A stretch of DNA of 47,020 bases from Gemmatimonadales bacterium (GCA_036270315.1 DATBCS010000035.1:1-47020); one strand, 5' to 3'; shown: positions 10,399 through 12,849, counted from the stretch's first letter. Numbers and translations are program-made. Notes: generated by a model from the letters alone, not told the origin.

Positions 10399-10452
10399 AG
10401 TGTTACTGATGGGCCTGAGTGGAGTTGAACCACTGACCTCACGCTTATCAGG
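10399..10452 (-). repeat. 54-bp direct repeat copy 1: orphan 3-prime part of tRNA-Ile (anticodon loop to 3-prime end) plus 11 nt of flank; att-like
   Basis: agtgttactgatgggcctgagtggagttgaaccactgacctcacgcttatcagg is identical, base for base, to 12796-12849. The tRNA 5-prime half is absent here. Confidence 0.9.
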
Positions 10453-10460
10453 ACTCCGAC

Positions 10461-10577
10461 GCACGCCAACCAGCGCCAGCCAGCGCCAACCAGCGCCAGT
10501 TTTTCGCGGCATCCGCCAATGGGCGCAAACCAGCGCCAACCAGCGCCAACTAGAGTTGGCACCACATTGGCACCACA
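10461..10577. repeat. helically phased decamer repeats (two blocks of CAGCGCCAAC-like units) followed by two inverted-sense 11-mers
   Basis: 10461-10500: gcacgccaac cagcgccagc cagcgccaac cagcgccagt. 10511-10550: atccgccaat gggcgcaaac cagcgccaac cagcgccaac. 10556-10577: ttggcaccaca ttggcaccaca. No credible ORF covers them. Confidence 0.85.
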
Positions 10578-10742
10578 GCCTCTGTCGCGACAGCGACACG
10601 AGGGTGCGGAGAGATTTTCAACCTCGCGGCGCCGACCTACTGTGGCAGAGGCTGGTACTTATCCAACCAGCTCAGGATTTCTTGGATCAGCCTACCTATC
10701 TTGCCGGACACCTTGTGTTACCTATCTCCCCGGCTGCTCAGC

Positions 10743-11312
10743 TTATGTAATCATGTGAAGGTCGCAACGACGAACCTTCCAGATCGGCCCTTCGCGCGCA
10801 ACCCGACATTTGTGCGTTGTCGCGAAGCCGAGATACCGCGTCCACGACGTGTCACCCTGTTGAGAACGGCTTCCCTGCCCTACAAAAATGACGACTGCGG
10901 TGTCACCGAGAGGAATTGGTCGTGAGAGCCGAAGCTCGCCGCCCGCAGAGTCAGCCTGGCACCTAGGCACTTCGTTGCTTGAGTCAAGGGGCGCGCAGAC
11001 CTCAGTCACAATTTCATGACTTAGGAGGTAAGCGACAACCGTATCTGGAAGGCGACCGGAAGCTTCATAAGTGGCCGAATCAGACATCAGGTGGCGCTCG
11101 AGCGCGAGCCGGTGACGGTAGCGCAGCAACCCGGGTGCGCTTAACGCAGCGGCGTAGGCGGGTACGGGGTCGACAACAGTCGCGCGCTGCTCCAGACGGC
11201 AGTCCGCCGCGGCGATTGTGAGAAGGACGGGGAGGCCGTAGCGCCAAGTAGCGCGCGAGTTACGAATGCACATCGGACTGGCTCTCGGGTGGGGCCCGAC
11301 AAAATGGTACAC
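10743..11312 (-). CDS. hypothetical protein
   Basis: ORF only; lower-GC segment; no recognisable motifs. The track start is a GTG; an internal ATG at 11273 gives MCIRNSRATWRYGLPVLLTIAAADC... Confidence 0.3.
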   Translation of the reverse strand: MYHFVGPHPRASPMCIRNSRATWRYGLPVLLTIAAADCRLEQRATVVDPVPAYAAALSAPGLLRYRHRLALERHLMSDSATYEASGRLPDTVVAYLLSHEIVTEVCAPLDSSNEVPRCQADSAGGELRLSRPIPLGDTAVVIFVGQGSRSQQGDTSWTRYLGFATTHKCRVAREGPIWKVRRCDLHMIT

Positions 11313-11529
11313 TAGATGGATGGCGAGGGGGTTTCAGGTGCCTTTCGTTAGTGTGACAACCGAATGCCAAGAAGAGTGACTGCCTCTAACACATCGCGCT
11401 CAAGCTGCTGCGAATGCCCGACAGCTTCAAGCCCATGTTCGGCGCTCGTATTCATCGTGGGCGGCGTGGTGGCGGCGCTGGGGCCAGAGCAGCGTGGCGT
11501 GGCGTTCGGACGCGGGCCGTGAGCCCCCG

Positions 11530-12519
11530 CTAGAAGCCGATACGTACCAGATGCGCGCCGGCGCCGAGGACACGATACAGGCCGCCGCGGACCGTCGCGG
11601 GGGCGTTCACGAAGTCGCGCAGGATAGCGAGCTCCTCGCTCGTGAAAAACAGTCGTCCGTCTGCGGGAGTGATCGTGGGCTGACCACCGTCCGGTATGAG
11701 GATCCCGCCTACCTTCGCCAACGGCACATCGTCAACGGTTACGGTCTCGTCCCACGACCTGCCCGTGTTGAACCGGCCGGTGCTCCCTTTCAGCTCCGCG
11801 ATCGAGCCGGCGTGGCTGGCCGTGAGATCCAGGCCGTCTGAATAGGTATCCACGCCCATCATGGCCGAATAGTGCAGCACTTCGTGATAGTCCGCTGCCG
11901 AATCGTCGAGCTGCACCGTGGAGACCGTCGTGTTGACCCCTGAGCCCGGACTACCGCTCACCTCAAAGACCAAGCGCTGCTGCCCGTCGCTCACGAAGCC
12001 ACTCGCACTCGTTACCGCCGGCGGATCTCCGACCGCGTGCGTGATGGTGTAGTCGACCACCGGTTGGCCCCCGCCCCCGCTCTCACGCACGGTGCCATGC
12101 ACCGCTGTCGTGCCGGTCGTGCTCGCGTCGAACAGATCCAGCTGTCCGATGGCCGTAGCGGGACACGGGATCGAACCCGCCGGAGCAAGCTCGTACAGCA
12201 GGAACCGGACTCCGGTCGCGGGGGCGCCCGAGTCGTTCGTCACGGCATAGCGCTGGGTAGTGCAACTCCCCGCCATCGTCTTCCCGAGTAACGAGTCTGG
12301 TACGAGGGGCGCGCCTGCCGCGGGCGGGGGTAATGGCACGACCAGTGGAAAGTACCCGAGGGAGCGAACGATCGGTGACGTGAAGATGGTATCGACCAGG
12401 GTGAGCTCGGCGCCGAGGTCGCTCAGATCGGTGAGCGGGCCCGTCGAGCTGTCGCAACCGGCGGCGGTGAGCGCGACCGCCCCGGCGCTGATGACGCGGA
12501 TCACCCCTGGGACGCGCAT
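11530..12519 (-). CDS. putative lipoprotein, function unknown
   Basis: MRVPGVIRVISAGAVALTAAGCDSS carries a lipobox (LTAAGC). The frame has high third-position GC, GAGG lies 6 nt upstream of ATG 12519, and the protein ends in ...HLVRIGF. Confidence 0.7.
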   Translation of the reverse strand: MRVPGVIRVISAGAVALTAAGCDSSTGPLTDLSDLGAELTLVDTIFTSPIVRSLGYFPLVVPLPPPAAGAPLVPDSLLGKTMAGSCTTQRYAVTNDSGAPATGVRFLLYELAPAGSIPCPATAIGQLDLFDASTTGTTAVHGTVRESGGGGQPVVDYTITHAVGDPPAVTSASGFVSDGQQRLVFEVSGSPGSGVNTTVSTVQLDDSAADYHEVLHYSAMMGVDTYSDGLDLTASHAGSIAELKGSTGRFNTGRSWDETVTVDDVPLAKVGGILIPDGGQPTITPADGRLFFTSEELAILRDFVNAPATVRGGLYRVLGAGAHLVRIGF

Positions 12520-12751
12520 TGCAACCTCACGGTTCGAACCCTACCTACAATACCCTGCGTCTCCAGGGCGACGTCACACTACCGAATCGCTAAGGTAGGG
12601 CCCAGCGCAGGGACAGCATGGTCGAGAGGTACCGCCACTGGGCGATGGTCGCGGCCTCGGTCGCTAACCCTGAGTCCGAGTTTAGACGTGAACAAGGCAA
12701 ATCGTGACGCCAGTCGGGGGCGCCTGTCGGCTCCGCTGACGTATTGCTCAT

Positions 12752-12795
12752 CAAAAAGCATAAAGCCAAGCAGCATGTAATGTACTGCTTGGCTT
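12752..12795 (-). terminator. intrinsic terminator downstream of tRNA-Ile
   Basis: On the minus strand, an 11-bp perfect stem AAGCCAAGCAG / CTGCTTGGCTT (12795-12785 and 12773-12763) with an 11-nt loop, followed by TATGCTTTTTG. Confidence 0.6.
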
Positions 12796-12849
12796 AGTGT
12801 TACTGATGGGCCTGAGTGGAGTTGAACCACTGACCTCACGCTTATCAGG
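12796..12849 (-). repeat. 54-bp direct repeat copy 2, overlapping the 3-prime 43 nt of the intact tRNA-Ile
   Basis: Identical to 10399-10452. Covers tRNA positions 32-74 plus 11 nt downstream. Confidence 0.9.

Follow-up and report, generated by a model that had tools for sequence, protein, structure and literature searches.

A segment of DNA flanked by att repeats is present at the tRNA-Ile(GAT) gene of a Gemmatimonadales bacterium, inside a window (the whole stretch of DNA which was analysed) of 47,020 nucleotides. We consider this segment to be a decayed integrative mobilizable element which, by its genes and its att sites, falls under the definition of a cis-mobilizable element (CIME), and we give this reading a probability of about 0.72. 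The repeat is the genuine scar of an integration, the 3′ half of the tRNA gene and the terminator behind it are foreign DNA, and the enclosed genes are leftovers and not a working mobile element. Movement of the segment by its own power is most probably no longer possible, and its mobilisation in trans is unlikely.

Significance

The result mostly settles a question of annotation, as genomic fossils of this sort, decayed elements at tRNA genes, are common and well understood, and the segment belongs to an already known type. It also documents a busy tRNA-Ile(GAT)/typA hotspot for a poorly studied phylum that is known largely from metagenomes, and the stages of decay at this gene are all visible across species. 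The layout of the arm is common to elements at different tRNA genes and could help to delimit islands in the metagenome-assembled genomes (MAGs) of Gemmatimonadota.

The repeat and the tRNA gene

The genome searched is a MAG of 2.16 Mb in 257 contigs, 84% complete. The host is a soil Gemmatimonadota bacterium. The tRNA-Ile(GAT) gene was placed at 12807-12880 on the minus strand by ARAGORN and Rfam in agreement, and the ends of the segment carry the following features.

10399..10452, minus strand: attR core, the displaced 3′ part of tRNA-Ile (43 nt, index 32-74) with the 11-nt trailer, not joined to a 5′ half; this left junction is also present in contig L150
12796..12849, minus strand: attL core, the copy of the 54-mer which makes the 3′ part and the trailer of the functional tRNA
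12807..12880, minus strand: functional tRNA-Ile(GAT), found by ARAGORN and by Rfam RF00005 (72.5 bits), with a conserved acidic-protein gene and typA as its neighbours in every relative examined

An earlier note on this DNA had reported identical 54-bp copies at 10399-10452 and 12796-12849, and the repeat finder indeed returned this direct repeat of 54 nt at 100% identity. With up to 3 mismatches allowed, the 54-mer was found two times in the whole genome, both times in the window, and a reversed control pattern gave 0 copies. Each copy covers 43 nt of the tRNA-Ile gene (index 32-74) along with 11 nt of trailer, and the tRNA 5′ half is joined to the copy at 12.8 kb only; both the 11-nt extension and the single joined 5′ half had been claimed before, and they match the placement by ARAGORN and Rfam. 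The repeat had further been said to begin at tRNA position 32, the first base of the anticodon loop. The index of 32 stands and the start of the loop lies one base later, which is a trivial correction: owing to a long D loop index 32 is canonical position 31, and in the Rfam structure line it is the final base in the 5′ strand of the anticodon stem, with the anticodon loop running from index 33.

Identity of the two copies extends 11 nt past the tRNA and reaches the foot of the terminator; in two relatives with islands at the same gene (G007 and G004) it ends with the tRNA or no more than about 3 nt away. A crossover in the loop does not by itself account for such an extension. At an empty site one would expect the DUF4345 gene, then immediately AGTGTTACTGA and an intact tRNA-Ile, and such a site would account for the identity of the 11-nt trailer.

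No third, degraded att copy, which would have made an older island of 1-10.4 kb, was found further left in the window. Apart from the tRNA, the Rfam scan of 9800-13300 detected no RNA family.

Contents of the enclosed segment

The enclosed 2.3 kb is a patchwork which is made of one element arm, the 3′ remnants of a hydrolase gene, an IS481 element and an MFS gene, a hypothetical gene, a lipoprotein gene and a terminator. The arm is treated in the next section, and the remaining features are given here.

10640..10693, minus strand: hydrolase remnant, the final 18 codons, with the stop, of a gene of the alpha/beta-hydrolase type (tblastn, 89% identity to the C-terminus of a protein of genome G174, E = 3.6e-7)
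10693..10743, plus strand: IS481-family end, the last 51 bp with two TGTTACCTAT boxes, the transposase gene being deleted (90% identity to a sequence of genome G161)
10743..11312, minus strand: conserved hypothetical gene, 176 aa as called in public data (metagenome homologues at 52-65% identity)
11440..11522, plus strand: MFS transporter remnant, the last ~27 codons (75-80% nucleotide identity to the 3′ end of an MFS gene which five genomes of the genus carry in single copy)
11530..12519, minus strand: intact lipoprotein gene, 329 aa, a probable lipoprotein with signal peptide and Cys22 (107 homologues, up to 73% identity)
12763..12795, minus strand: intrinsic terminator hairpin of 13 pairs followed by TATGCTTTTT, placed directly after the 11-nt trailer and now ending the tRNA-Ile transcript

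The earlier list of contents was correct in naming decamers, a lipoprotein gene and the terminator, and incorrect in limiting the contents to these and one weak ORF, as the 3′ ends of a hydrolase gene, an IS481 element and an MFS gene are also present. In the full-length homologue of the hydrolase remnant both FGE-sulfatase and hydrolase domains are found. The G161 counterpart of the 51-bp IS481 end comes after a transposase-like C-terminus, and a full IS481 copy of the same genome as the window, on contig C181, ends with the same two-box end and encodes a transposase scoring 233 bits on NF033577. Homology to MFS genes ends at 11440, and the genome has its own intact MFS copy on contig C175. 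The gene stubs could also be cargo which was broken before arrival.

The supposed weak ORF is the hypothetical gene at 10743..11312, and the label does not fit a gene with real homologues in metagenomes. It has no Pfam or PHROGs family, and within its closest cluster of homologues IS3-type transposase HTH genes lie alongside on 5 of the 6 contigs. The 329-aa lipoprotein has no Pfam family. Those of its homologues which bear an organism name are few and mostly from Gemmatimonadota; their surroundings are ordinary chromosomal ones, and the nucleotide homology shared with the closest contig stops at most 9 bp from the gene.

Hairpins at the position matching that of the terminator, with the arm repeats on one side and the tRNA half on the other, were observed in the elements of contigs L085 and L094 and in the integrase-less island of G004, and by comparison with these the terminator at 12763..12795 appears to be element-derived. 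Its stem (AGCCAAGCAG) was also tried as a copy of the decamer and was dropped, a match of 8/10 being expected about two times by chance in the segment.

The arm beside the displaced half

Next to the displaced tRNA half the segment has two sets of short tandem repeats.

10464..10553, plus strand: decamer array of eight CGCCA(A/G)CCAG units, split into the blocks 10464-10503 and 10514-10553 by a T-rich spacer which keeps the 10-bp register
10556..10577, plus strand: two tandem 11-mers TTGGCACCACA, candidate arm-type integrase binding sites

Scanning of public genomes and metagenomes for decamer pairs returned 46 loci, most of which are unrelated tandem repeats or coding sequence. In 3 of these 46 the decamers stand no more than about 110 nt after a tRNA 3′ half that is cut at the anticodon loop, in the same orientation, and the chance rate for such a placement at random sites is, as a rough estimate, ~0.2%. 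The three halves belong to tRNA-Lys(CTT) in L073, which is from a Gemmatimonadota MAG, to tRNA-Arg(CCG) in L085 and to tRNA-Met(CAT) in L094. A second scan for the decamer arm, which covered 400 genomes of the family, added two loci: a nearly identical arm beside a tRNA-Ile-like half in G181 (L135), and decamers followed by the TTGGCACCAC motif in G189 (L122). Paired repeats analogous to the 11-mers occupy the same place in L073 and L135 (GTCACCAC/GTCACCGC), and L122 has a single copy of the TTGGCACCAC motif there.

The arm of the window aligns unit for unit with L073 and L135, and the common order is core, 11-13 nt, decamers, T-rich spacer, second block of decamers and the paired G(G/T)CACC(A/G)C. 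In L085 the order is integrase, paired arm repeats, terminator hairpin, tRNA half, A/T-rich box, decamers and again the same paired repeats, a layout which reads as attP-like, and the integrase is 45% identical to that of G007. The window arm resembles arms found elsewhere behind tRNA halves that are cut at the anticodon loop (Lys, Ile-like, Arg and Met), among which the contig with the Arg half also has an integrase.

The paired repeats flank the core on both sides in L085, L094, G007 and G004. In the window they are found only beside the displaced half, with no copy of the 11-mer motif on the tRNA side of the segment, and the integrase-side arm would therefore have been lost save for its terminator and trailer.

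In attP sites of the lambda type and the L5 type, tandem excisionase sites are located between the core and the arm-type integrase sites. The window is similar in that helically phased tandem repeats come between its core and two direct repeats. It differs in that the same decamer stands beside arms with different paired repeats, which would be unusual for an element-specific excisionase. Judged from their position and from the analogy with lambda-type and L5-type sites, which is the basis of both assignments, the 11-mers may be arm-type integrase sites and the phased decamers may be the binding sites of an accessory protein (an excisionase or a host factor).

The tRNA-Ile hotspot in relatives

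In 40 relatives the right flank of the window, a small acidic protein and typA, always adjoins tRNA-Ile; the left flank is not conserved among these 40 and differs in every genome examined, and the genes which relatives have to the left of the tRNA map onto five different contigs of the genome studied here. Displaced 3′ halves with an edge at the anticodon loop occur in many relatives, some of them as arrays of three to six, and displaced 5′ halves occur in others. Perfect identity of the repeat had been taken earlier as an argument against great age, and this is reasonable but weak, given that only 54 nt are compared and that the displaced halves of relatives show 85-100% identity.

In G007, a member of the same genus, a 7.8-kb element lies between an intact tRNA-Ile and a displaced half of 46 nt, whose right edge is at the same loop. 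Its genes include a 477-aa PF00589 integrase, which abuts the tRNA, and a relaxase of the MobA/VirD2 type, and on account of these two genes it is an integrative mobilizable element. Integrases at tRNA-Ile were also found in G026 (contig C6) and G035 (contig C19), the G007 copy being on contig C13, and an integrase 85% identical to that of G007 is present in another genus. Integrase C-terminal stubs of 32-106 aa adjoin the tRNA in G011, G005, G018 and G001. In G004 a 3-kb island lies between the same kind of repeats without an integrase, and has arm repeats on both sides. With G007, G004 and the stub-bearing relatives, every stage between an intact element and a small remnant is seen at this locus.

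The tRNA-Ile(GAT) gene next to typA is thus an integration hotspot in relatives. The proposal that the two repeats are attL and attR, left by a tyrosine recombinase acting at the anticodon loop, is supported by the G007 element and by the many displaced halves. A tandem duplication of tRNA-Ile in relatives had been named as the observation which would speak for another origin, and tandem tRNA-Ile genes were seen in no relative examined.

Searches for an integrase and a relaxase

The absence of a recombinase gene from the interior, as first read from the DNA, was confirmed in several ways. The two longer interior ORFs have no match in Pfam, PF00589 included, or in PHROGs, and the latter result leaves no sign of a prophage remnant. 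The interior has no similarity to the ORFs of the islands and flanks of relatives, no integrase pseudogene was found in 12520-12760 or in the rest of the segment, and neither a relaxase nor a relaxase remnant was detected inside it. The integrases of G007 and L085 were searched by tblastn against the 84%-complete MAG and had no match anywhere. The earlier note had asked for a tyrosine integrase beside another copy of the 54-mer; the genome has no third copy, and the PF00589 genes of the 84%-complete MAG are two, XerD and a XerC-like gene.

Proposed history of the segment

An integrative mobilizable element, from a family that would be common in the Gemmatimonadota lineage and whose members would carry a tyrosine integrase, may have entered the tRNA-Ile(GAT) gene. 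Its attP would have held a tRNA copy reaching from the anticodon loop as far as the 3′ end, together with a short trailer and a terminator of its own. A crossover made by the integrase in the anticodon loop would then have joined the attP copy to the chromosomal 5′ half, and it is from this joining that the working tRNA would end in element DNA. The original 3′ half would have been stranded 2.4 kb downstream, beside the other arm with its decamer array and pair of 11-mers. Later deletions, at least one of which would have involved an IS481 insertion, may have taken away the gene for the integrase, whatever transfer genes there were and the arm repeats of the integrase side. The leftovers, namely both att cores, a single arm, the three stubs of genes or IS, the hypothetical gene and the lipoprotein gene, would constitute a fossil of the CIME type.

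The hydrolase stub, the 51-bp end of IS481, the MFS stub and the lack of the 11-mer motif on the tRNA side are the signs of decay. As regards a parent element, the arm is like those beside other tRNA halves, one of which (L085) comes with an integrase, and the segment encloses truncated genes and likewise a truncated IS; the parent itself was not found. The earlier note had left the choice between a decayed island and an element mobilised in trans, and of this pair the evidence favours the decayed island, through the truncated genes and IS, the one-sided arm repeats, the single copy and the absence from 400 genomes of the family.

Comparison with known systems

The term CIME was defined for remnants of streptococcal ICEs and IMEs which keep attL and attR and have lost the genes for integration and transfer, and the concept includes co-excision, which has been shown, with an accreted ICE or IME (PMC5704250). 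The present segment is similar, since it keeps both 54-nt cores, has no integrase or relaxase and is located at a tRNA hotspot used by related functional elements. It is unlike those remnants in having no accreted element, in the apparent lack of one arm, and in its host, which is an uncultured Gemmatimonadota bacterium.

In the tDNA islands collected by Islander, integration splits a tRNA gene which the island then restores, and the far end is recognised by the displaced fragment as a direct repeat (PMC4383910). The tRNA-Ile locus follows this textbook pattern. The restored tRNA-Ile and the displaced fragment form direct repeats at the ends of our segment in the same way, whereas Islander calls need an integrase gene inside and the segment has none. 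Of the features by which a tRNA island is recognised, the direct repeat of a displaced copy and related integrase-bearing elements at the site were thus found, and an internal integrase gene was not.

The 7.8-kb element of G007 (L015) shares with the segment the target gene, the edge of the repeat at the loop side, the orientation, a terminator beside the restored tRNA and a decamer-like unit before paired arm repeats. Unlike the window, it has retained an integrase, a MobA/VirD2 relaxase and, on either side, the arm repeats (CGACTCTGTTTT ×2). The two interiors have no sequence similarity, and the repeat in G007 ends at the tRNA end and not 11 nt past it.

Alternative readings

The segment could instead be a functional non-autonomous element of 2.3 kb, which is excised and re-integrated in trans by an integrase (and an excisionase) from a related element that shares its cell or its community. 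Both cores are perfect, one complete arm is kept, relevant integrases circulate in the genus and beyond, as the 85% copy in another genus illustrates, and the G004 island, with arm repeats on both sides, is a second island without integrase at tRNA-Ile. We nevertheless hold this reading to be improbable, because the segment is single-copy in its own genome (G000) and a search of 400 family genomes did not return its interior, because the tRNA side has no arm repeat and the interior consists of broken genes and a broken IS, and because the 84%-complete MAG has no cognate integrase. The same two observations, one copy in G000 and an interior absent from the 400 family genomes, show that the segment is not of the multi-copy, MITE-like kind. 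Quite improbable too is a still-active satellite, a 2.3-kb element with perfect cores and a conserved decamer arm but no integrase, which would owe its excision and integration to the integrases that related mobilizable elements bring into the same soil community; in it the decamers would serve as a shared docking site for a directionality factor or a host factor.

A purely local origin would start from a duplication of the 3′ region of the tRNA by replication slippage or unequal crossover, into which unrelated DNA was inserted later, with no site-specific recombination. It would explain why identity takes in the 11 nt of trailer, which a crossover in the loop does not need. Against it, the edge of the repeat lies at the anticodon loop as in the integrase-bearing islands of relatives, the displaced half has beside it an arm of the element type that is also seen at other tRNA halves, and no relative has tandem tRNA-Ile genes; this origin is accordingly very hard to credit.

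Correctness of the assembly

No contig in which the left flank is joined straight to the tRNA, as in an empty site, was found through look-ups of the flanking proteins. Neither the DUF4345 protein nor the acidic protein of the flanks had an exact match in the protein look-ups, and the DUF4345 homologues, at 78-85% identity, are in unrelated contexts, for which reason no empty site was recovered.

A separately recorded metagenome contig from JGI, L150, of 1,621 bp, is collinear with positions 10090-11710 of the window, from which it differs by three substitutions (10100, 10184 and 10459) and zero gaps. Along L150 come, in the order of the window, the left flank, the displaced half, the arm, the stubs and the lipoprotein gene's 3′ end, and because this collinear order is reproduced, the left junction is real. 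The usual final k-mers of an assembly are longer than a repeat of 54 nt, which counts against a chimera. That the metagenome assembler fused two loci through a shared tRNA half is very unlikely, for although the MAG is fragmented into 257 contigs and repeated tRNA halves break contigs in relatives (contig C73 of G015, for example, ends inside the tRNA), L150 keeps the order with 3 SNPs and no gaps, and the layout is like that of real islands in more contiguous relatives. The length of the repeat, 54 nt, is one below a common k of 55 and was for this reason weighed as an artefact; L150 argues against it.

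Attachment sites and arm repeats

The 11-nt trailer of the tRNA, AGTGTTACTGA, was the same at both attachment sites of the window (12796-12806 and 10399-10409), and the identity of the two sites stopped exactly where the base of the terminator stem begins. This identity up to the terminator stem is not predicted by a crossover in the anticodon loop. In two metagenome contigs, identical paired arm repeats were found on either side of a tRNA 3′ half, which is an attP-like junction of the kind expected if an element had been excised as a circle or if two elements lay in tandem.

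Ga0310810_10141664 (L085), about 1200-1680: attP-like junction
Ga0247770_1000138 (L094): attP-like junction

The decamer CGCCA(A/G)CCAG, which is present in the window at 10464-10553, was found again in other elements, where it separates the core from the paired arm repeats (decamer loci L073, L085, L094, L135, L122 and L132). The elements bearing it differ both in their target tRNA (Ile, Lys, Arg, Met) and in their paired repeats, which suggests that the decamer is a shared site for an accessory factor. Tandem arrays of the same decamer, with variable copy number, also occur in unrelated phyla, for example on contigs of Anaerolineales and Verrucomicrobiaceae.

Duplicated tRNA halves and possible spread of the element family

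Some islands at tRNA-Ile in the genomes of relatives duplicate the 5′ half of the gene and not the 3′ half.

G001, contig C77, 3304-4883 (L017): island with duplicated tRNA-Ile 5′ half
G003, contig C67, about 2921-2959 (L019): tRNA-Ile 5′ half
G020, contig C383 (L020): tRNA-Ile 5′ half
G228, contig C145 (L121): listed with the 5′-half tRNA-Ile islands

In G001 the stranded 5′ half is separated from the intact tRNA-Ile by 1.46 kb containing a 32-aa integrase stub, and in G003 and G020 the tRNA-Ile remnant beside typA is a 5′ half only. Therefore the attP sites used by one integrase family seem to include some with the 5′ half and others with the 3′ half of the tRNA. The integrase encoded at G228:C295:405-1715, in a genome from another genus of the bacterial family, is 85% identical to that of the tRNA-Ile element of G007, which suggests a recent horizontal spread of this element family.

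Flanking regions and related loci

Conservation within the genus is poor over the 9.6 kb to the left of the displaced tRNA half; close matches were limited to the first 778 bp of the window and the sigma-54 activator region, and no additional att copy bounding these 9.6 kb was found.

About 780-10398: genes for aldehyde dehydrogenase, hydrolase, isochorismatase, sigma-54 activator, STAS, DoxX and DUF4345

On both sides of the hypothetical gene of the window lie short inverted sequences of REP-like type, GCCTAAC...GCGCTTGAAGCTGTCGGGC and an approximate complement of it; such sequences also flank the homologue of this gene in contigs which carry one.

Window, 11385-11443: REP-like sequences
L151, about 960-990, 1563-1590 and 1670-1700: REP-like sequences

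On contig C175 of the genome to which the window belongs (G000), about 1.2 kb (6130-7342) extends from the MFS gene to the next conserved gene and is absent in five relatives. The terminus of this contig is an IS481 end adjoining another tRNA gene, and a full IS481 copy is present on contig C181 (50-1300).
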